Shown in pieces: positions 27,889 through 50,323 of a stretch of DNA of 64,000 nucleotides. Each line of letters opens with the position of its first letter. Within the stretch, counting starts at the first letter, position 1. The stretch is taken from assembly GCA_964577595.1 (NCBI GenBank), contig CAZNZK010000001.1, forward strand, positions 208,144 through 272,143. Reading direction: 5' to 3'. Source of the DNA: an uncultured Candidatus Saccharibacteria bacterium. Lineage in GTDB: Bacteria; Patescibacteriota; Minisyncoccia; Phycocordibacterales; JAKAEA01. Below the pieces are notes generated by a model, which saw only the letters and a program-made list of their open reading frames with translations, was not told the origin of the DNA and did no database searches. Both the position numbers and the translations under genes were made by a program.

Positions 27889-27909
27889 TTAACCGGGGTC
27901 AGGCACCGG

Positions 27910-30292: not shown

Positions 30293-30298
30293 ACAACG

Positions 30299-33200
30299 TT
30301 AGTCTTTTAGCGCAAGGGCTGTGTCTGTCCATTCATAGAGCATAATTGAAAAGTCTATGGAATCGACCTTGTTGTCGTGGTTAATATCTACCGAAGAATT
30401 TTTATATGGAGCCTTTGTTCCCCAAAATGCCAGGAGGATGGAGAAATCAATCGCGTCTACTCTGCCATCATGGTTAAAGTCGGATGTTGTCAATTTAGAA
30501 TTCACTAAATTAGGAGTGGCGACTACCAGGTTGCCCCCTCCACCTCCTCCCCCTCCTCCACCGCCACCTCCACCACCTCCTCCCCCGCCGCCATTAGTAG
30601 AAACGGGAGCGGTTGCGGTGAATGACTGGTCGGCCGTAGAAAAGCTGGAGCCAAATTGGACATTTAAATGAAACCAATAATTTCCGGCATTTGGCACCGT
30701 GGAATTGAGCGTTGTGTCAAAATTTTGACCGGGCTGGATAAGCTTGGCATTCTGGCCGTCAAAAATGTCGGCGCTACCGCACGAGCCCACCTCTGAACTG
30801 GTGACGCACCAGTTATATGTGTATTCAGATTGGGCCTGGCCTTCGTTGGTTATTCTAATCGCCGTGGAAATATTCGGAGTGGTTAGGCTCGGGAAACTCT
30901 GGATGAGGACTTGCGCTGGCGAGCCCGGCGTCGCGCTTACCACACCAGAAGGTGTGCCTTGATTGATGGCATTTTTAGCAATCACTCGGAAATTATACGC
31001 AACGTCGTTGGAAAGGCTCGTCACTGTTGTGGCAGGCGTAGTTCCTACTCCATCATCAAATATGGCCCAGGTGCCACCCGTAGCTAATTCGTATTCAACA
31101 ATGTAGTCGGCGATTGAGGAGCCCCCATCAGAAACGGGCGCTGACCAAGAAAGACCAATGCTACTGTCGGCGACTGTGGCTGTGAGGTTTTGCGGCGCGC
31201 TTGGAATACTTGCGGGCGTAATGGAGTTACTTGTTCCCGATGATGTACTCGTGCCTTCCGCGTTAGTGGCGCTAACGGTAAATGTATATGGTGTGCCGTT
31301 AGTGAGGCCGGTGACCGTGGCTACCGTAGAACCGCTCATGGCACTATGCAAGCCATCGTTGGAAGTAACCGTGTAATACAGGATGGTTGAGCCGCCGTTG
31401 AACGACGGGGCCGACCACGAAACAGTGGCGCTCGTATCGCCGGTCACGGCCGCAACGTTGGTCGGAGCGTTTGGAACGGTCGCCGGCGTTGTTGCGTTGC
31501 TGGAGAGTGAGGAGGTGCTTGTGCCAACCGAGTTCGTGGCAGTCACCGTAAAGGTGTAAGTGGTGCCGTTAATGAGGCCAGTGACGGTGATGGGCGAAGC
31601 GCCGCCCGAAGCAGTGTGACCATCGTTGGAAGTAACGGTGTATGAGGTGACCGTGGCGCCGCCAGTATTGCTTGGCGGAGTGAAGGTGACCGTGGCATTG
31701 CCATTTCCGCTAGTGGCAGTGACGCTCGTCGGCGCGTCGGGAACAGTAGCAGGCACGACTGAATTACTTGTACCTGAGGACGTACTGGTTCCAACAGCGT
31801 TGCTGGCGGTGACCGTGAACGTGTAGGTGGTGCCATTAGTGAGGCCGGTGATTGTTATAGGCGACGAGCCACCGGTTGCGGTGAATCCTCCGACATTTGA
31901 AGAAACCGTGTATGTCGTGATGGCCGAGCCGCCAGTGTTGCCAGGCGCTGTGAAAGTAATTGTGGCTTGGCCGTTGCCACCGGTGGCTGTGCCGATCGTC
32001 GGCGCATTCGGAATGGTAGCCGGCGTTACTGAATTAGTGGTGGCTGAAGGCGTGCTCGTACCAGCTGAGTTTGAGGCGGTCACCGTAAACGTATACGTGG
32101 TGCCATTAGTGAGGCCGGTGATTGTTATAGGCGAGGAACCACCCGTTGCCGTGTGCCCGTCGTTGGAAGTGACGGTGTAGTAAGAAATCGTGGATCCCCC
32201 ATTATTTCCGGGAGCCGAGAACGTGATAGTGGCTTGGCCATTTCCTCCGGTTGCCGTGCCAACAGAAGGCGCATTCGGAACTGTGGCCGGAGTGACCGAG
32301 CCACTAGCAGACGAGGCAGTGCTCGTGCCTGCAGAATTGGTGGCGGTAACCGTGAACGTGTATGCAGTGCCGTTGGTAAGGCCGGTGACGGTGATTGGAG
32401 ATGAACCGCCATTTGCCGTGTGGCCGTCGTTTGAGGTAACCGTATAGGTAGTGATTACGGAGCCACCGTTATTTCCGGGCGCGGTGAATGTGACGAGCAC
32501 CTGACCATTACCGCTCGTGACCGAACCGATTGTGGGCGCATCAGGAATAGTCGCTGAAGTGACTGAATTACTGGTGGCCGAAGCGGTACTCGTGCCCACG
32601 GAGTTGGTCGCGGTAACCGTGAACGTGTAGGTCGTGCCGTTGGTGAGGCCGGTCACCGTAATCGGCGAGGAACCGCCGGTTGCGCTGTGGCCGTCGTTAG
32701 AAGTGACGGTGTAGTACGAAATTGTTGCCCCTCCATTATTTCCGGGAGCCGAGAACGTGATGGTAGCCTGACCATTGCCGGAAGTGGCGGTACCTATGCT
32801 TGGAGCATTAGGAACAGTAGCTGGCGTGGCCGAATTAGAAGCGCTTGAAGCCGTACTCGTACCAGCGGAGTTGGAAGCCGTCACCGTAAAAGTATACGAC
32901 GTGCCGTTGGTGAGGCCGGTCACCGTAATCGGCGAGGAACCACCCGTTGCGCTGTGGCCGTCGTTGGAACTAACCGTGTAATAAGAAACGCTCGCGCCGC
33001 CGTTATTTCCGGGAGCCGTAAACGCGACGGTGACCTGACCATTTCCGGCAGTGGCGGGGCCAATTGTCGGCGCGTCGGGAACCGTTGCTGGCGTAACTGA
33101 ATTACTTGCGGCGGAAACAGTGCTTGTTCCTACTCCGTTGGTAGCCGTTACGGTAAATGTGTATGTAATACCGTTGGTGAGGCCGGTCACCGTAATCGGC

Positions 33201-36200
33201 GAGGAACCGCCCGTTGCGCTGTGGCCATCGTTTGAGGTGACGGTATAATACGAAATTGTTGAGCCGCCATAATTTACCGGTCCGGAGAAAGAGATTGTGG
33301 CCTCGCCAGGACTTTGTGTTGCCGTGCCAATGGTTGGAGCGTCAGGAACAGTCGCTGGCGTCACTGAATTTGAAACCGAAGAAGCGGTGCTTGTGCCGGC
33401 CGCATTCGTGGCAGTCACCGTAAACGTATAGGTGGTGCCATTCGTCAGGCCAGTAATTGTTACGGGCGAAGAACCGCCCGTGGCAGTGTGACCATCGTTG
33501 GAACTAACTGTGTAATAAGAAACTGTGGCCCCTCCATTATTTCCGGGAGCCGTAAAAGTAATGGTTGCTTGCCCGTTTCCGGAAGTAGCCGTGCCGATAG
33601 TTGGCGCATTCGGAGCCATGGCAGGAGTGACCGAGTTAGTCACGCTGGAAGCAGTGCTGGTACCCACGGCATTACTTGCTGAGACGGTGAATGTGTAGGT
33701 CGTACCGTTAGTGAGGCCGGTTATTGTTATAGGTGACGAACCGCCCGTGGCAGTGTGACCGTCATTAGAAGTGACAGTATATGAAGCCACAGTGGCTCCC
33801 CCATTATTTCCGAGTGTCGAGAACGAAATCGTGGCCTGCCCGTTTCCGCCAGCGGCAGTCACACCGCTAGGAGCATCTGGAACTGTAGCTGGCGTAACTG
33901 AATTTGAAACGGAAGAAGATGTACTGGTGCCCACACTATTAGTAGCGGTAACTGTGAATGTGTAGGTTGTACCGTTACTTAGTCCCGTAATAGTAATTGG
34001 GGATGAACCGCCGGTTGCCGTAAATCCGCCAATGTTTGAACTGACTGTGTAATACGTAATTGTGGAGCCTCCATTATTTCCGGGGGCCGAGAAAGAAATG
34101 GTAGCCTGACCATTGCCGCCAGTGGCGGGCCCAATTGTCGGCGCGTCGGGAACCGTTGTCGGCGTCACTGAATTTGAAACTGAAGAAGCTGTACTTGTGC
34201 CAACCGCGTTCGTAGCGGTCACCGTAAACGTATAGACCACACCATTAGTGAGGCCGGTCACCGTAATCGGCGAGGAACCGCCGGTTGCGCTGTGGCCGTC
34301 GTTGGAAGTGACGGTGTAGTACGAAATTGTTGAGCCGCCATAATTTACCGGTCTGGAGAAAGAGATTGTGGCTTCGCCAGGAGCTTCTGTTGCCGTTCCG
34401 ATGGTTGGAGCGTCAGGCGTCGTGGCCGGCACGACTGAACCGCTTGTGCCAGAAGGAGTACTTGTGCCAGCACCATTGGTCGCGGTCACCGTGAATGTGT
34501 AGGTCGCGCCGTTGGTGAGACCGGTAATGGTGATTGGTGAATTACCACCCGTCGCGGTGTGCGGTACGTCGGTCAGGGAATTGGAAGTGACGGTGTAATA
34601 GGTGATATTTGAACCATTGTTATTTGGCGCAGTGAACGTGACGGTGGCTTGGCCAGTGCCAGCAGTGGCAGAGACATTAGTTGGAAAATCTGGAGCCGCG
34701 GCGGGCATGACCGAATTACTTGTTCCCGATGAGGTGCTGGTGCCCACCGCATTGGTCGCGGTCACCGTAAACGTGTAGGTCGCGCCGTTGGTGAGACCGG
34801 TAATGGTGATTGGCGAATTACCACCCATCATAGTATGCGGTACATCGCTCAAGGAACTTGAGGTAACCGTGTAATACGAAATTGTTGAGCCGCCGTAATT
34901 TACCGGCCCGGAGAAAGAGATTGTGGCTTCACCAGGAGCTTCTGTTGCTGTTCCAATAGTTGGCGCGTCTGGAATGCTAATAGGTGTGACCGAATTACTT
35001 GTTCCCGATGAGGTGCTGGTGCCCACCGCATTGGTCGCGGTCACCGTAAACGTGTAGGTCGCGCCGTTGGTGAGACCGGTAATGGTGATTGGTGAAGTGC
35101 CACCAGTCGCGGTGTGCGGTACGTCGGTCATGGAGTTGGAAGTGACGGTGTAATACGAAATTGTTGAGCCGTTATTGGCTGGCGCGGTGAAGGTGACAGT
35201 GGCCTCGCCAGGACTTTGTGTTGCCGTTCCGATCGTCGGCGCGTCAGGAGAGGTAGCCGGCATGACCGAATTACTTGTTCCCGATGAGGTGCTGGTGCCC
35301 ACCGCATTGGTCGCGGTCACCGTAAACGTATAGACCACACCATTAGTGAGGCCGGTCACCGTAATCGGCGAGGAACCGCCGGTTGCGCTGTGGCCATCGT
35401 TTGAGGTAACCGTGTAGTACGAAATTGTTGAGCCGCCATAATTTACTGGTCCGGAGAAAGAGATTGTGGCTTCACCAGGAGCTTCTGTTGCTGTTCCAAT
35501 AGTTGGCGCGTCTGGAATGCTAATAGGTGTGACCGAATTACTCGATAACGAAGCACTGCTTGTGCCGATGCTATTTGTCGCGGTGACGGTGAAATAATAC
35601 GTTAGACCATTCGTAAGGCCCGTAATAACTATGGGCGATGCCCCACCAGTAATGCTATGCAAACCATCAGTAGAAGTGACGGTGTATGAAGTTATCGTCG
35701 AATAGCCATCATTAACGGGTGCGGTAAAAGTAACAATGGCTTCGCCAGGAGCTTCTGTCGCCGTTCCAATGATTGGCGCGTCCGGAGCGGTAGCGGGAGT
35801 GATTGGGAGTGAGGAAAGTGAGGGAGTGCTTGTTCCTACGCCGTTTGTCGCAGTGACGGTGAAGGTGTAGGTTGAGCCGTAGGTCAAGCCACTAATAGTT
35901 ATCGGTGAAGTGCCTCCACTCATAGTATGCGGAACATCACTCGTGGAATTGGAGGTTACGGTGTAGTACGAAATAGTGGAGCCGTTGCTGTTTGGATATG
36001 AAAAAGTAATCGTGGCTCCATCATCATTTCTGACTGCCGAAATAATTATCGGTTGGTCGGGAACGGTAGCTGGCATCACTGAAAGACTCGAACCTGAAGC
36101 GGTGCTCGTGCCAACCGAGTTGGTAGCAGTAACAGAGAAAGTGTACGTCGCGCCGTTAATCAAACCACCGATAGTGATGGGCGAAGCGCCTCCACTCATG

Positions 36201-39200
36201 GTATGCGGAGTATCACCCAAGGAGCTGGACGTCACGGTGTAGTACGAAATTGCGGAACCATTGTTGGCCGGTGTAGTGAACGTAATAGTAGCTGTGCCAG
36301 GACCCCCAGTAGCGGAGGTGATGACGGGAGCGTCTGGAGCAATAGCTGGCATCACGGAACCACTCGTGTTTGACATGGTACTGGTACCAACGCCATTGGT
36401 CGCAGTAACGGTGAACGTGTAGTTAACACCATTAGTAAGATTAATAATTGTAATTGGTGATGAGCCGCCGTACGCCGTGTCACCGTAATTAGAGGTGACG
36501 GTGTAATACGAAATAGTGGAGCCGTTATTGGCCGGTGTAGTAAAAGTGATGGTTGCCGAACCGGGGCCGCCAGTAGCGGAGGTGATGACGGGAGCGTCTG
36601 GAGTTGTGGCGGGCATAACAGAACCACTAGTGTTTGACATGGTGCTTGTGCCAGCAGAATTCGTGGCCGTCACCGTGAACGTGTAGTTAATACCATTGGT
36701 GAGATTGGTAATTGTAATTGGCGACGAACCACCGATTGCCGTGTCACCGTAATTAGAGGTGACGGTGTAATACGAAATAGTGGAGCCGTTATTGGCCGGT
36801 GTAGTAAAAGTGATGGTTGCCGAACCGGGGCCGCCAGTAGCGGAGGTGATGACGGGAGCATCGGGAACGGTGGCCGGCATCACGGAGTTGCTCGTGACCG
36901 AAGCCGTGCTGGTGCCGGTGGCATTAGTTGCTGTTACGGTAAAAGTGTATAGGACGCCATTAGTTAGGCCATAGATCGTAATTGGTGAATTACTGCCGGT
37001 TATTGTATGTGACACGTCGGCTAAAGAACTGGAAGTGACGGTGTAATAAGTGATAGCAGAACCACCAAGATTAGTCGGCGCTGTGAAAGTGATGGTAGCT
37101 TGGCCATTACCACCAACCGCGACAACGTTCGTCGGCGACCCTGAAACAGTTTGATAATCAAGATACGCATAAGTAGAGCTCGGAACAATATCCCAAATTG
37201 GCGTGGCAAAATCCCAGTTGGAATATGTGGCGAGCAACATCATTGAGTTGTTACTCTCGCTGTTCATACCGGAAGGATCCACAGCACCAGTGCCAAGACC
37301 GTTGTTGTGGAGCTTTCCAGAAGTGTCCGTATCCCAATAATCGGAAACATAGGTGCCGCCAGCACTGCCGGTCATACCGCCGACGTTGCGTACTCCCACC
37401 GTAGTACCATTCGCGCCGGCGCTACCGGTGCCACCCGCTCCACTACCGGTGCCAGTAGCACCACCCGCACCACCGAGAGCGGCAAGAGTGCTTGTGCCTG
37501 AAGGCGCGCCAATTGAATACGCGTTCGTAACCGTTGCAGTGTTGCTACCCATCAGGCCGCCGATGTATGCATTACCGCCGTTGCCGCCAGTGCCACCATT
37601 CAAACCGGCGCCAGCGGTACCCAATGTACTTCCGCCACCTTTAGCACCACCGGCGCCACCCTGGCCACCGTTGCCGCCTTTAGCGGCCAGGCCAGCAGTT
37701 GAGCTCGCGGTTCCTAATGCATAGGCATTAGTGATAGTTCCCGTATTTGTGCCGATTAAACCTCCGGCATACACATCACCGCCCGCGCCACCGTTGCCGC
37801 CGTTAGAACCATTCGTGGCCGGGCCACCGTTGCCGGTAGCGCCGGAGCCACCAACACCACCGTTGCCTCCTATGCCGCCAGTGGCGCCAACAATTCCATT
37901 GCCTCCAATCACCTTCACATTACCGGAAGCATAACTGGTGCTAATACTACCCGTTGAAATATTTCCGCCAACGAGCCCGCCGCCGTAGCTGAAGCCGCCA
38001 GTACCACCATTACCCTCTGTTACCACGCCACCACCAGTACCGCCAATGCCACCGCCACCTGTTCCGCCATTGCCACCAGTGCCAGCTACCCCAGCAAGAC
38101 CAGCCGCGCCACCGTTGCCGCCAACAATGGTAACGTTCCCCGCCGACCAGGAATATTGAATTATGCCCGCGGTGTAGTTATAACCGACTAGTCCCCCAGC
38201 GTAGGCCGCGCCGCCGTTGCCAGCCGCGGCAGTTGCTCCTTCTGCGCCACCCGTGCCACCAGCACCCGTTGCGCCGCCGTTGCCACCGACGCCACCTATA
38301 CCACCCGCGCCTCCGGCACCGCCGGTTGAACCATTAGCATTTACTGCTCCGATAGCATATGTCGTATATAAAGTACCTAAGTTATAGCCAGTAAAGCCTC
38401 CGGCATACGTGATACCGCCGTTAGTACCAGCGGTTCTACCCCCTGCCTGACCACCATTACTACCGTTGCTTGCGGAAGCGGCTGTGGTGGTACCTATACC
38501 ACCAGTGCCGCCAGCACCGCCAGCACCGCCAGCACCAGCAGTCGCCGTTACTGTTCCTAATGCATAAGAATCTTTAATAATCATGCCGGTAAAATTTTCT
38601 CCGGCAAAACCACCACCATAGACGATGCCAGCTGTGCCTGCGGCACCACCTGTTCCTCCAACGCCACCCTGGCCACCCACACCAACCGTGCCAACAAAAC
38701 CAGAAACGCCATTGCCACCAACACCGCCAGTACCGCCAGTGCCAGCAGTACCTGTGGCGTTATTAGTTGAATAAGAGTTGATCTCAATAAAACCATCGTT
38801 ATAACCAACAAAACCTCCTATATATAGAGCACCTCCCACGGCATTCGTGGCAGCAGAACCGCCGGTACCACCGCCACCGCCGATACCAACACTTCCAGCC
38901 GCGCCGCCGGTGCCGCCAGTACCTCCCGTGCCGCCGTTGCCGGCAATTCCAGTAACCGTTTGCCCAATAGCATAACTGGTGAGCGTTGTGTTTGTCGTGT
39001 CAATATTATTTCCAATCAGACCGCCGACATATGCCGCGCCGCCGGCGCCGGAAGCGCCTCCGTTGCCGCCCAATCCTCCCGCATGACCACCGACTCCCAA
39101 CGAGCCGTCACCACCCGTGCCGCCGTTACCGCCGGCGGCACCGTTGTTACCTATTGCCGTAACAGAACCGGCCGCGTACGAACTAATAATGACACCGTTG

Positions 39201-42200: not shown

Positions 42201-45200
42201 AATCCTACCAATCCTCCACCGTAAGCAAAACCTCCTGCGCCGCCACCGGCGCCGTTGCCGCCGTTGCCGCCCGACATTGTGGTTGTGGCGGTTGTGGTAC
42301 CGTCTCCACCTAAGGCACCGAAACTTCCCGTTCCACCAACCTGCCCTATAACTAAAATATTTCCCGTGGAAGAGGCGTTGCTAATAGTATCTCCGGTACC
42401 GCCAATATATCCAAAAAGACCGCCGACATATGTATAGGAACTGGCTGCGCCACCGGCACCACCCGCGCCGCCGTTGCCGCCCAAAGCTCCAACAGTTCCG
42501 TTAATCGCTGTACCACCGGTGCCACCCGTGCCGCCCGTCGCGTAAACATTGCTCGTTGAATAAACAGCATTAAATAAAAGATCATTGGTAGTATTGTTGT
42601 AGCCGGCGATACCTCCAACGTACACCGCCCCGGTTATACCACCACCACCGCCAGTACCGCCGGTGCCATTTCTACCTCCCAACCCACCAGCCGGACCGCC
42701 CGTGCCGCCCGTTCCACCCGTGCCACCGCCCGCGCCCAAAACCGCATTGATAGTTCCATTCTGGCTATTTGATGACAAAATATCTCCGTTGTCTTGACCG
42801 GCTAAACCTCCCATATATAGAGCACCACCGGTGCCACCCGTGCCGCCGGCACCGGCCGCACCACCGCTATGACCGTTGAGTCCTAATGTTCCATCACCAC
42901 CGTTTCCTCCTTGGCCAGCAGCAGCACCGGGTGTTCCATCTGCCGTCATACTGCCAACCACTATCACTGAAGAATTTATAATGACTCCCGGATTATCACC
43001 GGTAAGTCCTCCTATATATGTAGCGCCACCAACGCCGCCGTTGCCACCAGTGTTACCAGCACCTCCTGTGCCGCCAATAGCAGCACCGGAAGCTCCAGCC
43101 TTACCACCCGTGCCGCCAGCACCGGCCGTACCGCCATTAACTGAAATAGTAGTAACGGTGTACGTAACGCCACTAATGATACCCGTATTTGAACCGGTCA
43201 CCCCACCACCATACGCCGCGCCGCCGTTGCCGCCCGCACCACCAATGCCACCGGCACCACCGATAAATCCTGAGGTGCTTGTGGCATTTCCTCCGGCGCC
43301 ACCAGTACCACCATAACCTCCGAGGCCCCCAGTTGAATAAATTCCTCCCGTATTATTTGCCGTGCCTATTGTTGATCCAGCAACGCCGTTCCAAGCAACA
43401 ACACCACCAACATAGGTGGCCCCACCGTTGCCGCCAAGACCACCAACAACAGCGGCTTCGGATACTCCGTTGATACCCGTTCCGCTCGTGCCGCCATTTC
43501 CAGCATTACCGCCATAACCGCCGGTGCCACCGGTTGATGTAGCATTCCCCATCGCATAAGAATCAACACCCACCAACCCCAAGTTGTTTGCTATCAAACC
43601 ACCCGAGTAACTCGCGCCGCCCGTGCCGCCAGCACCGCCAATGTTGCCGGCACCACCGACAACTCCACCACCGGAGGAATTACCACCATTAGCGCCGGGA
43701 GCACCAGGAGCGCCAGTGCCGCCGGTTGAGCTTGCTGTCCCTAGTGCATATGAAAAATTTTGAACAATACCGTTGGCGCTGTTTTGCCCCAGCAAACCTC
43801 CGGCGTAGGCAGGGCCGCCAGCACGAGCAGTAATCAAAGCGCCAGTATCAAGCGCGCCGTTGGCACCGCCAGCCATACCAGTTGACCCACTACCACCAAG
43901 ACCGCCGGAACCAGGCGCGCCACCAGTACCACCGAGCGCGGAAACATTTCCTGTCGCATACGAATGATCAATAACGCCCGTGCTCAGCGCTACTAAACCC
44001 CCAGCGTAAGCGGTTCCGCCAAGACCACCGATCGCGCCGCCAGTGCCACCAGTGGCTCCAACGCCACCAGCACCGCCAGTGCCACCGTTTCCAGCATTGC
44101 CCGCTACTGATGTTACCGTCGCGGCGGCATAAGAATTTGCTTGAATAAAACCAGCTACGTTATTTCCCACCCCACCACCTGCATATGAAAACGCTCCCAG
44201 GCCTCCGGTGCCACCAGTGCCGCCGGCACCACCAAGAGCCCCACTGCCACCAATACCGCCGGCACCGCCGGTAGCTCCGTTGCCACCAGAACCAGCGGTA
44301 GCGGTTACGGAACCGGCAGAGATATATGAATTGGTAATTGTTGAAGAGTTGTATCCGGCAATACCTCCGCCATAAGCCGCGGCTCCGGCACCACCCGTAC
44401 CGCCCTGCACTCCGGAAGCGCCAACTTGACTCGCGCCTCCCGTAGAACCATTACCGGCTGCTCCGGCAGCTGCTCCGGGTTGGCCAGAAACTGAAAGAGC
44501 AATAACCGTGGTTGACGCGGTTGAGCTGGCAATAATAGTGGTGTTATATCCCACCAATCCACCAGCGTAAGCAATAGCACCAGTACCACCAGTACCGCCA
44601 GTGCCACCCGCCGCGGCAGTAGCAGCAATAGTTCCGGTAGTGGTGCCGGCCCCGCCACCCGCGCCACCTAAACCAGGAATACCTGAGGTTGACGTGACAT
44701 TTCCAATAAAATTATTTCCACCCTGGACGATGCCGGCACTATCTCCAATAAGCCCGCCGGCGTAAGATACGCCGGCAGTGCCGCCCGTTCCACCACTGCC
44801 ACCGACACCGCCGATAGAGTTGGTACCGCCAGCTCCGCCACTGCCACCATTGCCAGCATTGCCACCCTGACCACCGTTCGCAATTATGGATCCAGTTGAT
44901 GAGGCTGTTGTTACTGTGCCGGCAACAAAGTTTCCGATTACTCCTCCACTGAAGGCGTTGCCACCCGTGCCGCCGCCAAGACCACCCAGCCCGGCGCCGC
45001 CGGTAGTTGACGTTGCCGTTCCACCAGCTCCGCCATTACCACCAACGCCACCCGCGCCGCCGTTCGCGGTTATGGTGCCAATTGAATATGAACTTAGAAT
45101 ATCTCCGTTATTTTGATCACCGACAACTCCGCCAACATATGCAACACCGCCAGTTAAGCCGGCGCTACCAGCAACACCGGACGTGCTCGTCGTTCCCACA

Positions 45201-48200
45201 CCACCATTTGCTCCGGCACCACCAGCTCCGGCTGTGCCTGTGAGGTTCGCCAAAAAATAACTACTCGTAATAGTTGGCCCTGAGTTGTAACCGGTAATTC
45301 CGCCAGCGTAAATAATCGCGCCGATAATCGCCGTGCCGGCAGCACCAGGCGTGCCACCAGTGCCGCCAGGCCCCGCGCCGCCGACACCGGCAGCGCCACC
45401 CGCTCCGGCTATTCCGGAAATATTTCCCGTCGTATGATAGCTGTTCGTAATAATATTGGTATTATTGCCGGATATTCCTCCTATATATAGAACGCCAGCG
45501 GCGCCGCCCGTGCCGCCACCGACGCCAGCATAGCCGAGCAAGCTCGCCGCGCCCGTTCCTCCGGTGCCACCGGTGCCACCATTAGCCGAGAGTGCATTTT
45601 GAGAAAATGAGTTTTGAATGGTTCCCGTATTGCTTCCGACAAGCGCGCCCGCGTAAGTTGCTGTTCCGTTAGCGGAACCTCCCGTGCCTGAAGTGCCACC
45701 CGTGCCGTTTGCGGCGCCGGATGTGCCTTTAGCACCGCCAATTCCGCCCGTGCCACCCATGCCACCATTGCCGCCCGTCACCGTAACAAGCCCCGCAGTG
45801 GAATCAGCCATACTAATAAGTCCCGCGTTTAATCCCACGAGACCACCGGCATATGCAGCGCCACCAACGGCACCGTTCGCCGCATTGCCGCCATTGCCGC
45901 CGCTCGCCGCCGTACCACCCTGGCCGCCCGCGCCGCCATTGCTACCATTCTTACCAGCAGATCCTGTGGCCGTTACGGCACCGCTTGCATATACAGTACT
46001 TGTTGCCCCGGTGATAATTCCATCAGCACTATTTTGCGCTACTAAGCCTCCGGCATAAGCAATAGCTCCAGCACCACCAATGGCACCGGCGCCACCGCCT
46101 AGGGCAGTCGCTGTTGATGCGGCCGCACTGGTACTGGCCATGCCACCGGCAGATGCATTACCCGCAATGCCGGCAAGTGACTGCACCGTGCCGGTAGCGT
46201 ACGAACCGGTCTCAATAGTTCCTAAATTGTTTGCCACCAAGCCACCGGCAAATGAGTTGCCACCCGCGCCGCCAACAGCACCGTTGCCGCCTGCACCGCC
46301 AGTAGCAGCCACGTTGCTGTTACCACCCTGCCCGCCCGTACCGGCAATTCCCGCCACGCCGCCAGCGCCACCATAGGCCGTAACATTTCCAGTTGCCGCG
46401 GAAGCCATAATCGTGCCAGTGTTGAGCCAGCCAATCAAGCCGCCGACATAGCTAATGCCACCAGCACCGGGAATACCAACACTGCCTCCACCACCGCCTG
46501 TTCCCGTGCCGAAGTTCATACCACCATTGCCACCGTTACCACTGGCGCCGCCCGCGCCGCCGCTACCAATAACCGCAACCGTGCTCAACGCGTTCGTGAT
46601 ACTACCTTGTGCAGACCACCCAACCAGACCTCCAATATAAACGACGCCACCAGTGGCACCGGCATTCGTTGGCGTCGTGCCTCCCACACCGCCAGTGTTA
46701 GCAAAACCAGCCGGAGTATCACCGCCGTTACTCGCGTTTCCTTCAGTACCGCCCGCGCCGCCCGCGCCAGTTACTGTTCCAGAGATATTAATATTTGAAA
46801 TTGTTCCGGCGTTATAGGCGACCAGGCCGCCGACATAAATGTTGCTACCCGCGGTACCGGCAGAGTTGTTATTACCAGGAGTGCTTGTCGCCACGGCTGC
46901 GGCATTAGCGGTACTCAAGCCCGGCGTGCCTGTCGCCGAAATAAGTAAATTTGCCAGAGTGAGATTTTGAATGTTACTGCTGTTATATCCAAAAAGACCG
47001 GCGTAGGTTATGGAGCTTGAAGCAATAAATAAGTTGCTGACCGTAAATCCATTACCATTGAAATTTCCCGTGAAGCTTGTCGTGTTATTTCCTATCGGCA
47101 CAAAACCACTGCTTGAATTCCAGGATGAAGTCACGGTCGCGTCAACACTGCTGTTAAGCTGGTAAGAACTCGTCAGGTTGGTTTTGACCCCCTGCAAGCC
47201 ATAGACGTCATAAATTATATACGGATCATTCGTTGAGCCGATACCGGTGTACCTTCTAAACGTACCGGCATTGATGGCAAAATTATTGCCGACGGAAAAA
47301 TAGTTGTTGGCAGGATTCCCGACCGTGAGAGTAGCAAAGTAGGTGCCGGAGTTTTGAATAAAATTGTTTGTAATCGCCAGGTTGGCGTTCTGGTTGATGC
47401 TTCCGGCGAAGCCGTTTATGGAGAATGAACTGATAGTTGAAGAAGCATCAATTGTCACAATGGAGGAAGCGATTCCGGAGTTTCCATCAAAAATGACCGT
47501 AGTTGTGGTACCAGGCGCATTCACGGTGCTGGTGAAAGTGGCACCGGAGGAAGTCGCCCAGTGAGTGCCACCGACATCCGACCAAAGCCCCGTGCCATTA
47601 ACCCAATAAGCAGTAGCCGGAGGAGTCACCGGGTCAACGATGTAGTCAATGTCTATGTTTCCGGAAATTCGCAAATCAAAAAGGTCGGTCGGTGTTTGCA
47701 AGTCGGGCATCAGAATCCGATACTTTCCTTCCTGATTAATTTGAAATGTTGCGTGGAGCGCGTCGCCTTCCGTAGTACTTCCTTCGGCGTCAGTATATAC
47801 CGGGTACACGGTTATTGAACCCGTCTGGCTCGCATCGTCCGCTTTGGCATAGAGTGTGACGTCGTTTGTGTTGTTCAAAATTTGATCAAACGTGACCCGG
47901 ACAGATTGGCCGGAAGCGATGGTAGCGTAGTTTCCATCTTGCGCCTGCACGAGGCTATAAATATCACCGATCGGGTTAAGATTCGCGTCCAACTGCAAGG
48001 CTTTGGAAATGTAAATAATTTGAAATGTTTGAGTTGAAAGGTGCGGCACAATCCACTGAAGGTGATCAATGTACCCATTGCCATCTTCATCAAGCGCGGT
48101 AAATTGCATTGGTTGACCGCCATTGTTCGCCCAATTTATTTTAATTTGATTTTCTTGACCCACTTTAAAGAGTTCTGGAATAGTAATGGTGACCGGTACG

Positions 48201-48850
48201 TTAATCATAGGAGTGAGCGCTTCTTGTTCGGGCGTTGCTGAAATCGTCACCAGCTTTCCGTCGCTGGTTAATTGCTCAACAATAGTTGGAGTTGAGCTTA
48301 CTACATCAGCTGTTGAAGTTGCCGTAGATGTTGCGTCACTCGCAGAAGCCGAAATGCCTAATGGGTCGGTGGTGGTCGCTGATGAATCACCGCCACCAGT
48401 TGTTGTTGAAGTACCCGTAGGTGATGAAGTGTCTGGAGTTGAAGTTGCTACATCTGAGACGGGGAGAGTGACAGATTCGGACGTGGTCGCCATGGTTGTG
48501 GGGGGAGGCACATCTTCAACCGGTGTGGTATTTTGGCTGCCAGTATCACTAGTTGTCACGTTTGTACCCGTATCATCAGCGGTCGCATCGGCAGTCGGAG
48601 TAGGCGTGCTGAGACTACTACTATCTGCTGAGTCAGACGAAGTGTCGGGTGTGGTAACTGCCGGCGTTGCAGTCGTAGGATCAGGGGTAGCGGCAGGTGT
48701 CGCAGTGCTCGTATCAGTATCCGCTGTGGTATCGGTGCTAGGAGCAACCGCGTCATCAGCCAAGCTCCTGAGAGGGAAAAAACCGGCACAGAGAAAAATC
48801 ACAAGTATGACAAAAAATATCTTGATGGTGTGATTGAATCGTGATGACAT
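30299..48850 (-). CDS. Giant (6183-aa) secreted surface fibre protein with, in order: signal peptide, Thr/Ser/Asp-rich linker, N-terminal globular region, about 49 GLUG-motif/Gly-rich repeats, 23 FN3-like repeats, a roughly 110-aa domain, Gly22, and a C-terminal dockerin-like domain.
   Basis: Single uninterrupted ORF of 18,552 nt. Signal peptide MSSRFNHTIKIFFVILVIFLCAGFFPLRSLA. Recurrent Y[AVI]GG[LIV][VI]G.N.G.I.NSYA units separated by GGxGG tracts. Repeated about 90-aa PDAPTIGTAT...TYTFTVTATN units. Dockerin DFNHDGRVDAIDFSILL...DINHDNKVDSIDFSIML. Confidence 0.85.
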   Translation of the reverse strand: MSSRFNHTIKIFFVILVIFLCAGFFPLRSLADDAVAPSTDTTADTDTSTATPAATPDPTTATPAVTTPDTSSDSADSSSLSTPTPTADATADDTGTNVTTSDTGSQNTTPVEDVPPPTTMATTSESVTLPVSDVATSTPDTSSPTGTSTTTGGGDSSATTTDPLGISASASDATSTATSTADVVSSTPTIVEQLTSDGKLVTISATPEQEALTPMINVPVTITIPELFKVGQENQIKINWANNGGQPMQFTALDEDGNGYIDHLQWIVPHLSTQTFQIIYISKALQLDANLNPIGDIYSLVQAQDGNYATIASGQSVRVTFDQILNNTNDVTLYAKADDASQTGSITVYPVYTDAEGSTTEGDALHATFQINQEGKYRILMPDLQTPTDLFDLRISGNIDIDYIVDPVTPPATAYWVNGTGLWSDVGGTHWATSSGATFTSTVNAPGTTTTVIFDGNSGIASSIVTIDASSTISSFSINGFAGSINQNANLAITNNFIQNSGTYFATLTVGNPANNYFSVGNNFAINAGTFRRYTGIGSTNDPYIIYDVYGLQGVKTNLTSSYQLNSSVDATVTSSWNSSSGFVPIGNNTTSFTGNFNGNGFTVSNLFIASSSITYAGLFGYNSSNIQNLTLANLLISATGTPGLSTANAAAVATSTPGNNNSAGTAGSNIYVGGLVAYNAGTISNINISGTVTGAGGAGGTEGNASNGGDTPAGFANTGGVGGTTPTNAGATGGVVYIGGLVGWSAQGSITNALSTVAVIGSGGAGGASGNGGNGGMNFGTGTGGGGGSVGIPGAGGISYVGGLIGWLNTGTIMASAATGNVTAYGGAGGVAGIAGTGGQGGNSNVAATGGAGGNGAVGGAGGNSFAGGLVANNLGTIETGSYATGTVQSLAGIAGNASAGGMASTSAAASTATALGGGAGAIGGAGAIAYAGGLVAQNSADGIITGATSTVYASGAVTATGSAGKNGSNGGAGGQGGTAASGGNGGNAANGAVGGAAYAGGLVGLNAGLISMADSTAGLVTVTGGNGGMGGTGGIGGAKGTSGAANGTGGTSGTGGSANGTATYAGALVGSNTGTIQNSFSQNALSANGGTGGTGGTGAASLLGYAGVGGGTGGAAGVLYIGGISGNNTNIITNSYHTTGNISGIAGAGGAAGVGGAGPGGTGGTPGAAGTAIIGAIIYAGGITGYNSGPTITSSYFLANLTGTAGAGGAGANGGVGTTSTSGVAGSAGLTGGVAYVGGVVGDQNNGDILSSYSIGTITANGGAGGVGGNGGAGGTATSTTGGAGLGGLGGGTGGNAFSGGVIGNFVAGTVTTASSTGSIIANGGQGGNAGNGGSGGAGGTNSIGGVGGSGGTGGTAGVSYAGGLIGDSAGIVQGGNNFIGNVTSTSGIPGLGGAGGGAGTTTGTIAATAAAGGTGGTGGTGAIAYAGGLVGYNTTIIASSTASTTVIALSVSGQPGAAAGAAGNGSTGGASQVGASGVQGGTGGAGAAAYGGGIAGYNSSTITNSYISAGSVTATAGSGGNGATGGAGGIGGSGALGGAGGTGGTGGLGAFSYAGGGVGNNVAGFIQANSYAAATVTSVAGNAGNGGTGGAGGVGATGGTGGAIGGLGGTAYAGGLVALSTGVIDHSYATGNVSALGGTGGAPGSGGLGGSGSTGMAGGANGALDTGALITARAGGPAYAGGLLGQNSANGIVQNFSYALGTASSTGGTGAPGAPGANGGNSSGGGVVGGAGNIGGAGGTGGASYSGGLIANNLGLVGVDSYAMGNATSTGGTGGYGGNAGNGGTSGTGINGVSEAAVVGGLGGNGGATYVGGVVAWNGVAGSTIGTANNTGGIYSTGGLGGYGGTGGAGGNATSTSGFIGGAGGIGGAGGNGGAAYGGGVTGSNTGIISGVTYTVTTISVNGGTAGAGGTGGKAGASGAAIGGTGGAGNTGGNGGVGGATYIGGLTGDNPGVIINSSVIVVGSMTADGTPGAAAGQGGNGGDGTLGLNGHSGGAAGAGGTGGTGGALYMGGLAGQDNGDILSSNSQNGTINAVLGAGGGTGGTGGTGGPAGGLGGRNGTGGTGGGGGITGAVYVGGIAGYNNTTNDLLFNAVYSTSNVYATGGTGGTGGTAINGTVGALGGNGGAGGAGGAASSYTYVGGLFGYIGGTGDTISNASSTGNILVIGQVGGTGSFGALGGDGTTTATTTMSGGNGGNGAGGGAGGFAYGGGLVGFTNTNIFISNAYATGTVSISAGNAGIGGNGGKGGLGANNPGGNGGTGIAGGLGGTVYVGGLVGFVTSGEIDSSYSTGAVTGTSGNGGNSGSGGIGGAGNGQFIGGIGGNGVAGNNGGVNYTGGLIGSNSGTLQYDYHILGMVTANVGSGGIGGAGGNAGASGAFLSASTTAAGGAGFLGGTGGAVNIGGLVGINTGAGAIINNSYAMANASTTGGIGGQGGIGGNAGDGSAGVNQTGGIGGVGGAGGPGASGVGPPATAVQAGGLVGQNITGTISNSYAVSGTVTATGGAGGASVQGGTGGIGTGTGLSGLAGAGGAGGAGGSVYAGGLVGYSTGVVNGSYSETTLNIAGGSGQNGSNGISGVANRGAAGSNAGAGGASGIVYAGGLAGYTVADVVASWTSVDPISGAGNIYINTGGTGNAGNAGNGGSAVVSGGVGGVGGTTAAVGGATNGAIVGGLLGYSSATVSSSYSQSLTITGVEQTGGIGGNGGNGGAGAGSSVGGVGLIGGNGGNSGTLEFGGLIGNDLGVIQQSSYSLVTIFMTGGNGGLGGNGGAGGTSGTTTSSGTAAAGFPGGIGGAGGVVFGGGLVGTISGAALTIQVVNSYATGTVSIVGGNGGNGGTGGNGGSGFYGTTGHVGSTGALGGVAGVGGEADAGGLVGFSSFAAGTGNFLNDYALGNVSALGGNAGTAGSSGSAGLSTTTVTGVSGPAAVAAAVGGNAYAGGLIGNNRFTTGINNFINSFAIGFASSTGGIGSIGNVGGNAASSTGSSLGGNGGVGGNGGAGGEADAGGLVGYSSVTSGTGNYQNSAATSTTNIVSAKGGQGGQGGSAGYSGAGAGAFAGGGTLAGGTSGAGGNAYAGGLIGQTSASANTDLSIIGSHSTENVVATGGSSGNGVTGVIGGLGGSLNKGGTGGTGGTSSTGGTSYAGGLIGSNAGIIENTSYATGNATSTSGTAGTAGVGGTGGATGGALSGGTAASGGVGGVGGNAGVAYAGGLVANNAANGVIISSYAAGSVTAIGNNGAAGGNGGTGGDGSLGVGGHAGGLGGNGGASGAGGAAYVGGLIGNNIDTTNTTLTSYAIGQTVTGIAGNGGTGGTGGTGGAAGSVGIGGGGGTGGSAATNAVGGALYIGGFVGYNDGFIEINSYSTNNATGTAGTGGTGGVGGNGVSGFVGTVGVGGQGGVGGTGGAAGTAGIVYGGGFAGENFTGMIIKDSYALGTVTATAGAGGAGGAGGTGGIGTTTAASASNGSNGGQAGGRTAGTNGGITYAGGFTGYNLGTLYTTYAIGAVNANGSTGGAGGAGGIGGVGGNGGATGAGGTGGAEGATAAAGNGGAAYAGGLVGYNYTAGIIQYSWSAGNVTIVGGNGGAAGLAGVAGTGGNGGTGGGGIGGTGGGVVTEGNGGTGGFSYGGGLVGGNISTGSISTSYASGNVKVIGGNGIVGATGGIGGNGGVGGSGATGNGGPATNGSNGGNGGAGGDVYAGGLIGTNTGTITNAYALGTASSTAGLAAKGGNGGQGGAGGAKGGGSTLGTAGAGLNGGTGGNGGNAYIGGLMGSNTATVTNAYSIGAPSGTSTLAALGGAGGATGTGSGAGGTGSAGANGTTVGVRNVGGMTGSAGGTYVSDYWDTDTSGKLHNNGLGTGAVDPSGMNSESNNSMMLLATYSNWDFATPIWDIVPSSTYAYLDYQTVSGSPTNVVAVGGNGQATITFTAPTNLGGSAITYYTVTSSSLADVSHTITGSNSPITIYGLTNGVLYTFTVTATNATGTSTASVTSNSVMPATVPDAPVITSATGGPGSATITFTTPANNGSTISYYTVTSNYGDTAIGGSSPITITNLTNGINYTFTVTATNSAGTSTMSNTSGSVMPATTPDAPVITSATGGPGSATITFTTPANNGSTISYYTVTSNYGDTAYGGSSPITIINLTNGVNYTFTVTATNGVGTSTMSNTSGSVMPAIAPDAPVITSATGGPGTATITFTTPANNGSAISYYTVTSSSLGDTPHTMSGGASPITIGGLINGATYTFSVTATNSVGTSTASGSSLSVMPATVPDQPIIISAVRNDDGATITFSYPNSNGSTISYYTVTSNSTSDVPHTMSGGTSPITISGLTYGSTYTFTVTATNGVGTSTPSLSSLPITPATAPDAPIIGTATEAPGEAIVTFTAPVNDGYSTITSYTVTSTDGLHSITGGASPIVITGLTNGLTYYFTVTATNSIGTSSASLSSNSVTPISIPDAPTIGTATEAPGEATISFSGPVNYGGSTISYYTVTSNDGHSATGGSSPITVTGLTNGVVYTFTVTATNAVGTSTSSGTSNSVMPATSPDAPTIGTATQSPGEATVTFTAPANNGSTISYYTVTSNSMTDVPHTATGGTSPITITGLTNGATYTFTVTATNAVGTSTSSGTSNSVTPISIPDAPTIGTATEAPGEATISFSGPVNYGGSTISYYTVTSSSLSDVPHTMMGGNSPITITGLTNGATYTFTVTATNAVGTSTSSGTSNSVMPAAAPDFPTNVSATAGTGQATVTFTAPNNNGSNITYYTVTSNSLTDVPHTATGGNSPITITGLTNGATYTFTVTATNGAGTSTPSGTSGSVVPATTPDAPTIGTATEAPGEATISFSRPVNYGGSTISYYTVTSNDGHSATGGSSPITVTGLTNGVVYTFTVTATNAVGTSTASSVSNSVTPTTVPDAPTIGPATGGNGQATISFSAPGNNGGSTITYYTVSSNIGGFTATGGSSPITITGLSNGTTYTFTVTATNSVGTSTSSSVSNSVTPATVPDAPSGVTAAGGNGQATISFSTLGNNGGATVASYTVTSNDGHTATGGSSPITITGLTNGTTYTFTVSASNAVGTSTASSVTNSVTPAMAPNAPTIGTATSGNGQATITFTAPGNNGGATVSYYTVSSNDGHTATGGSSPVTITGLTNGTTYTFTVTATNAAGTSTASSVSNSVTPATVPDAPTIGTATQSPGEATISFSGPVNYGGSTISYYTVTSNDGHSATGGSSPITVTGLTNGITYTFTVTATNGVGTSTVSAASNSVTPATVPDAPTIGPATAGNGQVTVAFTAPGNNGGASVSYYTVSSNDGHSATGGSSPITVTGLTNGTSYTFTVTASNSAGTSTASSASNSATPATVPNAPSIGTATSGNGQATITFSAPGNNGGATISYYTVTSNDGHSATGGSSPITVTGLTNGTTYTFTVTATNSVGTSTASATSNSVTSATIPDAPTIGSVTSGNGQVLVTFTAPGNNGGSVITTYTVTSNDGHTANGGSSPITVTGLTNGTAYTFTVTATNSAGTSTASSASGSVTPATVPNAPSVGTATGGNGQATITFSAPGNNGGSTISYYTVTSNDGHTATGGSSPITITGLTNGTTYTFTVTASNSAGTSTPSATTNSVTPATIPNAPTIGTATGGNGQATITFTAPGNTGGSAITTYTVSSNVGGFTATGGSSPITITGLTNGTTYTFTVTASNAVGTSTSSGTSNSVVPATVPDAPTSVTATSGNGNATVTFTPPSNTGGATVTSYTVTSNDGHTASGGASPITVTGLINGTTYTFTVTATNSVGTSTSSLSSNATTPATVPNAPTNVAAVTGDTSATVSWSAPSFNGGSTILYYTVTSNDGLHSAMSGSTVATVTGLTNGTPYTFTVSATNAEGTSTSSGTSNSITPASIPSAPQNLTATVADSSIGLSWSAPVSDGGSSIADYIVEYELATGGTWAIFDDGVGTTPATTVTSLSNDVAYNFRVIAKNAINQGTPSGVVSATPGSPAQVLIQSFPSLTTPNISTAIRITNEGQAQSEYTYNWCVTSSEVGSCGSADIFDGQNAKLIQPGQNFDTTLNSTVPNAGNYWFHLNVQFGSSFSTADQSFTATAPVSTNGGGGGGGGGGGGGGGGGGGGNLVVATPNLVNSKLTTSDFNHDGRVDAIDFSILLAFWGTKAPYKNSSVDINHDNKVDSIDFSIMLYEWTDTALALKD
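30929..37208 (-). repeat. Tandem array of 23 in-frame FN3-like repeats (about 270 nt each) within the giant gene.
   Basis: 23 successive units counted from the protein (PDAP/PNAP ... TYTFTVTATN ... SNSVTPATV). Several adjacent units are nearly identical at the amino-acid level. Confidence 0.8.
37410..47070 (-). repeat. About 49 degenerate GLUG-motif plus Gly-rich repeats (about 66 aa each) within the giant gene.
   Basis: Counted occurrences of the Y.GG[LIV].G.N.G.I core in the translation. Extreme GGN codon bias produces CCN-rich proline shadow ORFs on the opposite strand. Confidence 0.75.
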
Positions 48851-49738: not shown

Positions 49739-50323
49739 TTAGCTAACGAGCACCGCCGTCACCACAAGACGATCGTTATAGGTACCGGTCTGCGGCAAAT
49801 AGGTGCCATAGCAGGTAATAATTTTAAGAAGCGGCTGGCCGCTGTCGGCGAAAATCTGGCCGCTGGGAAAAGCGCTGACGCTGTAAATATCGAGAGAAGT
49901 AACTTTAAAATGAGAGACGCCACCAAGCACATTGGTTACGTAAATATCGTCGCCAGCAACCAGGGTGTGGAGATTTTTAAAAACGCCGGGAATAGCGGCA
50001 CCGTTATCAACGTGGCCGTCAATTACCGCACTGCCTATGCCGCCAACCACGGGCCCACGGTCATACCAACCGGCCTGCACGAAATTGTGTGGCACATCAA
50101 GTGCACCAGCCGGAGTAATATCAACAGGCACAATTGAAGCCCGCTTGCCAATTTGCGGAATGAAAAGCGAGGCCGGAGCGCCGGCTACGGGCCCGATAGT
50201 AGCCGGCGTATTTTGGGCATAAGCCGGAGAAATGGTTAGAAAAAAGCCGCCGAAAGCCACGGATGTGGTAACGACGAGCACAAGTGAAGTGCGAGCGATA
50301 CTGGCGCGAAATGAAAGTTGCAT
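49739..50323 (-). CDS. Sortase-family transpeptidase (class E/F-like) with an N-terminal TM.
   Basis: His region GSAVIDGHVD. Catalytic-Cys context LLKIITCYG (TLxTC-like). Followed by conserved R (NDRLVV). Confidence 0.7.
   Translation of the reverse strand: MQLSFRASIARTSLVLVVTTSVAFGGFFLTISPAYAQNTPATIGPVAGAPASLFIPQIGKRASIVPVDITPAGALDVPHNFVQAGWYDRGPVVGGIGSAVIDGHVDNGAAIPGVFKNLHTLVAGDDIYVTNVLGGVSHFKVTSLDIYSVSAFPSGQIFADSGQPLLKIITCYGTYLPQTGTYNDRLVVTAVLVS

Follow-up and report, generated by a model that had tools for sequence, protein, structure and literature searches.

A giant gene for a modular surface fibre and the putative cohesin-type anchors encoded beside it in a Candidatus Saccharibacteria genome

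Most Patescibacteria cannot be cultivated and are thought to live attached to other cells, and to our knowledge very little has been learned about their means of attachment beyond type IV pili. A 64-kb stretch of DNA from an uncultured Candidatus Saccharibacteria bacterium (GenBank assembly GCA_964577595.1, contig CAZNZK010000001.1, positions 208,144 to 272,143; hereafter the window) bears on this question, because 29% of it is occupied by a single 18.5-kb gene. What is the product of this gene, how could it be held at the cell surface and what could it do there? The reading we prefer, at a probability of about 60% and on the basis of sequence comparison, is that it encodes a non-cellulosomal adhesion fibre, which would be tethered by its C-terminal dockerin to cohesin-type membrane proteins encoded directly downstream.

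Positions 30299..48850 of the window form one open reading frame (ORF) on the minus strand, with 6183 codons, an ATG start and no internal stop in the translation, and we conclude that the gene is real and intact and that it codes for a secreted fibre of modular design. By our arithmetic, a stop-free run of this length is expected by chance with a frequency of about (61/64)^6183, or roughly e^-297, and the only other ORF of at least 150 amino acids (aa) overlapping the region has 215 aa and lies on the opposite strand. The G+C content is 0.53–0.60 across the gene, and the GC skew is strongly negative where the protein is Gly-rich. The predicted protein of 571 kDa is very acidic (pI ~4.05) and extreme in composition, with 23.5% G, 15.3% T, 11.9% A and 10.8% S next to 2.3% D, 0.7% E, 0.4% K and 0.3% R (K+R+E only 1.4%). 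Rfam and tRNA scans found nothing inside the gene or adjoining it, and promoter and terminator scans around the operon gave results no better than those for shuffled sequence.

A highly repetitive protein from a metagenome assembly invites the suspicion of an assembly artefact or pseudogene, in which collapsed or chimeric repeats stay in frame by chance. Two short-read contigs break within the array of FN3 domains, and three orthologous loci carry frame breaks (L003), an N-gap or a mid-repeat stop (L007 and L016, which we rejected as complete orthologues for this reason). Against this stand the stop-free 18.5 kb and the sequence of the repeats themselves: in a self-BLAST, no exact repeat within the gene is as long as 150 bp, its GLUG/Gly units have no DNA-level similarity to each other, and the FN3 units are ~72% identical, with a maximum of 92% over 224 bp. 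The same two contigs, which come from independent assemblies, match the 3' 1.5–4.7 kb of the gene at 99.99–100% (L001, Logan SRR8464963, window 27821-31856 at 100% identity; L088, a 250-kb contig of ENA ERZ27245386, window 19627-35046 at 99.994%). Furthermore, the orthologue in L003 is collinear repeat by repeat, with 45% identity for aa 781-1513, 56% for 1513-2637, 59% for 2638-3230 and 62% for 3232-3585, whereas off-register repeat matches reach only 30–40%; the GLUG array is therefore old and has been kept in register. Together with some two dozen orthologues whose ORFs exceed 3,900 codons, this makes an artefact scarcely credible, and it can be regarded as essentially excluded.

The first indication of how the protein could be held at the surface lies at its C-terminus. 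Pfam Dockerin_1 (PF00404) matches aa 6123-6170 with 48.8 bits (cut-off 22.9) when the last 233 aa are scanned, and with 33.2 bits on a 1983-aa piece. The domain consists of two tandem segments of ~22 aa, DFNHDGRVDAIDFSILLAFW and DINHDNKVDSIDFSIMLYEW, in each of which a calcium-binding loop of the form D-x-N-x-D-G/N-x-V-D-x-x-D is followed by a helix, and both are conserved in 26 relatives. Altogether, the C-terminal ~300 aa, comprising an FN3 domain, a two-Cys domain, poly-Gly and the dockerin, are 49–63% identical to 261 database proteins, many of which are complete secreted proteins of ~325 aa with their own signal peptide. The FN3 domain of these free-standing proteins is 55–63% identical to the 23rd and last FN3 of the giant protein, while seven further relatives (P0036, P0037, P0039, P0045, P0047, P0070 and P0073) carry array-type FN3 sequence in place of the signal peptide. 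Since the dockerin module also occurs alone, the giant gene is, as judged from these alignments, a fusion of a fibre with such a module; contig L001 covers the junction at 100% identity, and fused FN3-dockerin ends are present in several metagenomes. Within the module, C6015 and C6024 are the only Cys residues outside the signal peptide, and the domain around them, which has no convincing Pfam match, is probably a disulphide-bonded beta domain. At the position of the poly-Gly run, relatives carry 7–13 Gly.

The second indication comes from the two genes directly downstream, which both appear to encode membrane-anchored and divergent cohesin proteins. They are packed as in an operon: the gene for a 221-aa protein begins 6 nt past the stop codon of the giant gene and is itself overlapped by 14 nt by the gene for a 576-aa protein. 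The N-terminal 180 aa of the latter match Pfam Cohesin (PF00963) with 25.6–26.4 bits (cut-off 24.1), and the remainder is Ig-like (Big_13, 25.7 bits, under the cut-off). With the 221-aa protein, this cohesin domain shares 31% identity (E 4e-9); the laminin-G matches of that protein in a phmmer search of the PDB were dismissed as chance. A profile of 12 cohesin-like domains of the family placed two Ruminococcus flavefaciens cohesins at the top of a PDB search (E 0.004–0.006), and Pfam Cohesin matches 4/12 of these domains, with a best E of 1.2e-8. In the 576-aa protein the cohesin is carried on an Ig-like stalk of ~300 aa, and in the 221-aa protein it lies close to the membrane. Orthologues of the smaller protein are found directly downstream of dockerin genes in loci L082, L084, L086, L087 and L088, and the larger one has an orthologue in the same position in L086.

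This neighbourhood could still mean little if the dockerin were not paired with the adjacent cohesins. The fibre might then be released, or bind another receptor or the cohesins of other cells, which would amount to cell-cell aggregation, and the neighbouring cohesins would serve other dockerin proteins. Indeed, the window contains a single dockerin gene for two different cohesin proteins, and dockerin-cohesin specificity is unreadable from sequence. We nevertheless consider this distinctly unlikely in view of the operon packing, a synteny kept across 30–60% sequence divergence and the coupling of the two gene types. Among 80 JGI metagenome loci with the C-terminal module, the 3' neighbour was visible in 67. 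Counting ORFs within -60 to +400 nt of the ORF end, a cohesin-like ORF directly follows 48 of the 50 dockerin-bearing relatives but 0/17 relatives without dockerin, in which the Cys domain is internal (Fisher p 5e-14, calculated on loci that are not phylogenetically independent).

Individual loci repeat the arrangement in different forms. In the metagenome-assembled genome (MAG) GCA_964618365.1, a GLUG/Gly part (55% identical to aa 1812-3586) is followed by an N-gap, an FN3/Cys/dockerin part (56%), a 297-aa cohesin-like gene and a 576-aa cohesin gene; the 5' end of its giant gene lies on another contig, L025. Both cohesin types are fused in one 813-aa ORF directly after a dockerin-ending gene in L087:1100-3541. 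A free-standing dockerin protein followed by a 221-type cohesin protein is encoded in L082 and L084, and in L084 it is preceded by a 1112-aa protein bearing the N-terminal module (tip) of the giant protein. The dockerin module next to a separate tip protein suggests a Rosetta-stone style link between parts that are fused in the giant gene.

Two further observations concern these gene clusters. Two small conserved genes without Pfam match separate the dockerin gene from that of the large surface protein in L082:8831-9998 and L084:8768-9994, one for a secreted protein of 167–179 aa and one for a protein of ~206–207 aa with a C-terminal transmembrane helix; neither has a counterpart in the window. 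In L043:165-4194 and L016:6175-8865, a ~300-aa Ig-like dockerin protein and two cohesin-like membrane proteins are encoded upstream of a giant gene of the tip-GLUG/Gly type, and the dockerin-cohesin cassette therefore also occurs 5' of the giant gene.

At the opposite end of the protein, a signal peptide identified by inspection, MSSRFNHTIKIFFVILVIFLCAGFFPLRSLA, is followed by DD after the cleavage point, and the low-complexity linker of aa 32-190, without match in a Pfam scan, would form the distal end of the mature protein. For aa 185-680 we obtained an AlphaFold2 (AF2) model with 22 homologues; its confidence is high only in residues 1-222 (aa 185-406), where the model is all-beta with a predicted local distance difference test score (pLDDT) of 80–96. 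Foldseek against the PDB relates this tip to carbohydrate-binding-type beta-sandwiches as its nearest solved folds (Vip3B domains, 6v1v, E 4e-5; tandem CBM22, 4xup; SGBP-B, 6e57; CBM16, 2zez), although no carbohydrate-binding module family in Pfam matches it. No part of the family is more conserved than the tip module (~215 aa), which also heads proteins with the C-terminal parts Lcl_C/DUF1566, Fib_succ_major or Gly_rich_2, as well as non-Gly proteins of 1,700–3,400 aa. Such conservation together with reuse on many stalks is the pattern expected of a recognition head, and a role in adhesion or host attachment appears to be a reasonable inference from this anatomy. One could also imagine that the same anchoring displays a structural coat, spacer or matrix element, such as a fuzzy layer, a biofilm scaffold or a shield against predators or phages, which would provide bulk and distance instead of specific binding. 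The extreme composition and the long low-complexity stretches would suit such a coat, and a ligand has been demonstrated for no domain; given the conserved, repeatedly reused tip and its carbohydrate-binding-type fold class, we judge it unlikely.

Between tip and stalk, aa 407-613 lead into the rod without any Pfam match. Their end, FTGNFNGNGFTVSNLFI...YAGLFGY, is the same lead-in as that before classical GLUG arrays, and the entry motif ...F.G.FDGNG..IS.L... likewise precedes the GLUG arrays of the proteins P0170 and P0172. The rod unit reads xxYxGGLxGxNxGxIxxSYxxGxVxxx + (GGX)4-5 + 4-8 aa + (GGX)4-5, so that each rung carries ~38 residues of (GGX)n in two tracts; the Gly-Gly autocorrelation is 1.62, 1.49 and 1.45 times the expectation at lags 3, 6 and 9. 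The array closes with a cap whose motif, ..SYWDK.TS....WDFG..YP.LK, also ends the classical arrays of P0170, P0172 and P0231. Whole-protein scans gave no match to Pfam Glug, for which composition filters are probably responsible, but the family model reaches 21.0 bits (cut-off 20.5) on one 267-aa piece and 12.9 bits on another, matches 30/50 isolated cores at E<=1 (best 2.4e-5) and scores 27.1 bits in the orthologue fragment P0003 and 84–110 bits in the relatives P0023 and P0025. A six-unit AF2 model (aa 3205-3619), for which the protein's own repeats served as alignment, has a pLDDT of 64.8 and a predicted template modelling score of 0.66, with confidences of 72–83 in the strands. Each modelled unit contains three strands (~10, 7 and 4 residues) and then a stretch of ~40 residues to which DSSP assigns no structure. 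Most likely, each core contributes one stacked rung to a right-handed beta-helix of the type found in the N-terminal domains of IgA1 proteases, and in the model the (GGX)n tracts would be excursions from this helix without counterpart in solved structures.

An alternative reading is that the rod is catalytic or lytic, comparable to a tailspike depolymerase, a pectate-lyase fold or an IgA1 protease, and the whole protein a tethered enzyme directed against the host envelope. The match to IgA1 proteases, though, falls on their non-catalytic GLUG beta-helix, identity to enzymes is only 5–12%, no peptidase, lyase or glycosidase family of Pfam was found in the whole protein, and the rungs, which hardly differ in design and carry Gly-rich excursions, form no conserved groove. 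We therefore hold an enzymatic rod to be very unlikely. Still less probable, in our estimate, is a fibre binding ice, minerals or surfaces, in which the (GGX)n tracts would form polyglycine-II sheets with a flat binding face, in the manner of springtail antifreeze proteins and the giant ice-binding adhesin of Marinomonas. The Gly period of three would fit, and the best Foldseek match of the repeat model is the springtail antifreeze protein 7jjv with its nine polyproline II helices (E 7e-3, probability 0.80), with 2pne also listed. This match is non-significant, the model has low confidence in precisely those tracts, and the family comes from MAGs of groundwater, wastewater and sediment, not from specifically cold habitats.

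The stalk is the clearest part of the protein: Pfam fn3 (PF00041) scores 504.2 + 67.9 bits (cut-off 25) over 19+3 stretches, and in total we count 23 units with a period of 88–97 aa. Table 1 lists the features of the giant gene and its two neighbours.

Table 1 Positions of the giant gene's parts and of the two downstream genes in the window (aa, residues of the giant protein where a range is given).
Feature	Window position	Strand	Basis or detail
Start codon and Sec-type signal peptide, aa 1-31, cleavage likely after SLA	48758..48850	-	Translation, by inspection
Thr/Ser/Ala/Pro/Asp-rich low-complexity linker, aa 32-190	48281..48757	-	T 21, S 12, A 10, P 9, D 8%
Conserved tip module, aa 191-406, predicted all-beta sandwich	47633..48280	-	AF2 and Foldseek
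Beta-helix entry region, aa 407-613, ends ...FTGNFNGNGFTVSNLFI...	47012..47632	-	AF2, strand-rich, low confidence
50 GLUG-like cores, aa 616-3822, mean period 65.7 aa	37301..47011	-	
C-terminal beta-helix cap (..SDYWDTDTSG...SNWDFATPIWD..)	37136..37300	-	Sequence
22-domain FN3 array, aa 3906-5881, period 88-93 aa	31208..37135	-	Pfam fn3, motif spacing
23rd FN3, other subtype; first domain of the conserved C-terminal module, fusion junction	30932..31207	-	
Two-Cys domain, aa 5974-6083	30602..30931	-	C6015 and C6024 invariant in alignment of relatives
20-Gly run, aa 6087-6106, putative flexible tether	30533..30592	-	Mixed GGN codons
Dockerin with two canonical Ca-binding loops, DFNHDGRVDAID and DINHDNKVDSID	30323..30508	-	Pfam and sequence
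221-aa membrane protein: signal peptide, cohesin-like domain, short linker, C-terminal transmembrane helix	29627..30292	-	
576-aa membrane protein: signal peptide, cohesin, Pro/Ala linker, Ig-like stalk, transmembrane helix, cytoplasmic tail	27910..29640	-	

Much of this architecture had been outlined in a first-pass annotation of the DNA. The single uninterrupted minus-strand ORF for 6183 aa, the signal peptide, the ~170-aa Thr/Ser/Asp linker, the 23 FN3-like repeats, the ~110-aa Cys-containing domain and the dockerin were all recovered, the FN3 repeats and the dockerin with hidden Markov model scores well above the cut-offs, and the estimate of ~49 GLUG-like repeats comes very close to the 50 cores counted. 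The supposed stretch of 22 Gly is 20 residues long. An N-terminal region of ~400 aa had been described as beta-helix-like; this description holds for the second ~200 aa, the entry region, and not for the first ~215 aa, which AF2 and Foldseek place in the beta-sandwich tip. Two of the checks it had named gave mixed outcomes, namely the Glug model, with its weak but real match on a piece of the protein, and structure prediction, which was confident for the tip, of low confidence for the entry region and at a pLDDT of 64.8 for the rod.

How widespread is this type of protein? A genome scan with the tip module as target, covering one genome per GTDB species, returned 250 confirmed tip-module loci with differing downstream parts. 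Their record titles are nearly all from Patescibacteria (Falkow-, Wolfe-, Kaiser-, Staskawicz-, Nomura- and Doudnabacteria and Paceibacterota, together with many third-party-annotation bins labelled Saccharibacteria); two short contigs carry non-Patescibacteria labels. This distribution agrees with the episymbiotic type of organism suggested in the first-pass annotation. We kept 78 of these loci, and 29 of them continue behind the tip with an ORF that contains 26% Gly or more and 41–75 GLUG cores and stays open over 2,097 to more than 4,100 codons; most of these ORFs run to the end of the fetched DNA, and 11 further loci are cut earlier by contig ends. One such ORF lies on the complete 977-kb chromosome CP066698.1. 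The combination of domains, which the first-pass annotation had called unusual, is hence not a one-off, as tip-headed GLUG/Gly giants exist in at least 29 species-level Patescibacteria genomes. The orthologue and synteny searches proposed alongside it were fruitful, with related giants in Patescibacteria genomes, the same gene order in GCA_964618365.1 and the two cohesin-type genes directly downstream in the window itself.

The giant orthologues were reached through genome and metagenome loci. A search for homologous proteins gave only proteins of less than 900 aa and therefore cannot show fused full-length relatives. In addition, a profile of the GLUG-Gly-GLUG unit had 12,898 matches among 1.84 billion proteins. 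We rejected this count as evidence on the composite unit or its phylum range, because the top matches read lack Gly tracts: P0170, P0172 and P0231 are classical GLUG arrays, and P0164 belongs to Chromatiales. Literature searches returned no description of this fibre family, and the GLUG motif is almost unstudied, with four papers that mention it.

Altogether, the ORF, its domain order, the dockerin, the cohesin neighbours with their operon packing, the dockerin/cohesin coupling and the conservation of the family are observed, and the following mechanism is built on them. After Sec export, the dockerin would bind the cohesin of one or both downstream membrane proteins, probably with Ca2+, and this contact would tether the fibre non-covalently to its own cell. 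The 20-Gly run could act as a swivel, the 23 FN3 domains as a stalk of ~80 nm and the 50-rung GLUG beta-helix as a stiff rod of ~24 nm, as calculated from ~3.5 nm per FN3 domain and ~0.48 nm per rung. With its N-terminus pointing outwards, the fibre would end, at a distance of roughly 100 nm from the membrane, in a binding head made up of the beta-sandwich tip and the mucin-like Thr/Ser tail, which may bind a glycan or the surface of a partner cell or substrate.

Several observations weigh against this reading of an intact, cohesin-tethered adhesion fibre. For the 5' 13.8 kb of the gene, support comes only from collinear orthologues and from no further same-strain assembly, because L001 and L088 both end inside the FN3 array. 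The orthologue at L003:8890-19984 (ENA ERZ25039459 contig_135478) is split over at least five reading frames, which could be due to long-read homopolymer errors in G-rich DNA, as its contig name suggests a long-read assembly, or to a decaying copy. Regarding the anchors, the 221-aa protein has no Pfam cohesin match of its own, and the cohesin score of the 576-aa protein exceeds the cut-off by only ~2 bits. For the tip, Foldseek yielded matches with low TM-scores, from which its fold class can be read but no ligand. In the rod model, pLDDT falls to 54–65 in the Gly tracts, and the whole repeat unit has no significant match among solved structures in Foldseek.

Other genes of the window appear to be of separate interest. 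Upstream of the giant gene, at a distance of 0.9 kb and in the same orientation, is a sortase gene (49739-50383, minus strand; Pfam, 64.7 bits). This adjacency seems incidental, because the giant protein has no LPxTG motif and none of the 78 orthologue loci contains a sortase homologue; accordingly, sortase anchoring was rejected, as no LP.T[GASN] occurs in the protein and its C-terminus is a dockerin. At 2074-4665, the local G+C content is 0.417, compared to about 0.46–0.50 nearby. This segment encodes a replication initiator of the Phage_CRI type (2074-3126, 65.8 bits) together with a large serine recombinase (3137-4618), whose ORF runs into a tRNA-Val(cac) gene (4591-4665, minus strand), and it looks like a small integrated single-stranded DNA replicon or phage-like element at a tRNA gene. 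A glycogen/starch synthase (Glyco_transf_5, 227 bits) is encoded beside a GH57 enzyme at 18320-21332 on the plus strand, pointing to storage-glucan metabolism in an otherwise minimal-looking genome segment.

If the genome is close to 0.98 Mb, like the complete relative CP066698.1, the giant gene makes up ~2% of it, a considerable expense in such a streamlined organism. That the family is not unique to this genome lowers the surprise and raises the biological weight: if our reading is true, a concrete attachment apparatus consisting of tip, rod, stalk, dockerin and cohesin anchors recurs in dozens of lineages. It would also provide a clear natural cohesin-dockerin pairing beyond enzyme assembly, in a phylum where this is undescribed, and the compact pair (dockerin ~70 aa, cohesin ~140 aa) could be expressed without cultivating the organism. 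The anchoring hypothesis, for which the first-pass annotation had only hinted at cohesin partners, is well supported, and the GLUG/(GGX)n unit represents a candidate new repeat fold. More tentatively, and with more doubt than confidence, one may think of a Patescibacteria-wide, non-cellulosomal plug-and-socket display, in which cohesin sockets and dockerins, either fused or as ~325-aa adaptors, mount host-recognition fibres, and in which the rod is an unseen composite fold with polyglycine-II-type (GGX)n along each GLUG rung.

Among known systems, the kin of the rod are the GLUG beta-helices of the M26 IgA1 proteases (Gemella, 7uvk; S. pneumoniae, 7jgj), of BACOVA_03286 (3n6z) and of PF07581/PF05342. 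IgA1 proteases contain a few rungs of ~25–30 aa beside a metalloprotease, whereas the giant fibre has 50 rungs, each extended by ~38 aa of (GGX)n, no protease and marginal Pfam scores. Giant GLUG arrays of Proteobacteria (MBC6414695.1, Chromatiales, 5003 aa; P0170, P0172, P0231), which were the top matches of the repeat profile, are likewise secreted proteins of several thousand residues made of GLUG rungs. Their period is ~27 aa without Gly tracts, their GLUG blocks alternate with cadherin/Ig-like modules, and the three sequences read (P0170, P0172 and P0231) have neither this type of tip nor an FN3 array or dockerin. The (GGX)n tracts resemble mycobacterial PE_PGRS proteins and polyglycine-II antifreeze proteins (7jjv, 2pne) in their GGX triplets with X = T, A or N, but they are only 12–15 aa long, occur twice per unit, are always interleaved with a GLUG rung and match neither group significantly in structure or sequence. 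The PE_PGRS-like scaffold proposed earlier thus reduces to a likeness in composition, without PE domain or PE/PGRS match in the Pfam scans; homology was rejected in view of the absence of any Pfam match in aa 1-700, the Sec signal and the Patescibacteria origin.

Giant repeat adhesins (the RTX adhesins MpIBP, LapA and SiiE, Ebh and other FN3/Ig-stalk proteins) combine an anchor at one end, a tandem Ig/FN3-like stalk and distal ligand-binding modules. The giant fibre shares this logic of anchor, stalk and tip, but it lacks RTX nonapeptides, a type I secretion signal, LPxTG and a beta-barrel, and the anchoring proposed for it is non-covalent and would be provided by cohesins. An RTX adhesin secreted by the type I system was rejected, given that no RTX family (e.g. 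HemolysinCabind) is among the Pfam matches, Asp amounts to 2.3% and a Sec signal is present.

In cellulosomes, the dockerin of the scaffoldin is bound by cohesins of cell-surface anchoring proteins (C. thermocellum, R. flavefaciens; PMC12484212). The locus described here is similar in that a two-Ca-loop dockerin ends a very large modular protein and cohesins reside on cell-bound proteins encoded nearby. Unlike a cellulosome, the fibre has no carbohydrate-active catalytic modules, it would be the single cargo, its host is a member of the candidate phyla radiation with a tiny genome, and the anchors are held by a plain C-terminal transmembrane helix instead of S-layer homology domains or sortase. 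One dockerin gene stands next to two single-cohesin proteins in the 64-kb window, with no multi-cohesin scaffoldin, and no dockerin-bearing enzyme is found among the ~40 window ORFs scanned.

Closer in lifestyle are the giant proteins of Omnitrophota with their repeated internal dockerin/CBM35-like units (bioRxiv 10.1101/2023.11.21.568195), which similarly show non-cellulosomal dockerin-related modules in ultra-small, host-dependent bacteria, but have no described cohesin partner gene. In a cultivated Saccharibacterium, transposon sequencing placed the dockerin protein SEML1_0315 and an FN3 protein among the essential envelope proteins (PMC10633639); SEML1_0315 appears there as a domain annotation without further analysis. 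Neither of the two papers describes GLUG/(GGX)n rods or adjacent cohesin anchors. What appears to be new in comparison with all these systems, as far as sequence allows us to judge, is a giant adhesin-like fibre that joins a putative non-cellulosomal use of cohesin and dockerin with a (GGX)n-decorated GLUG rung.

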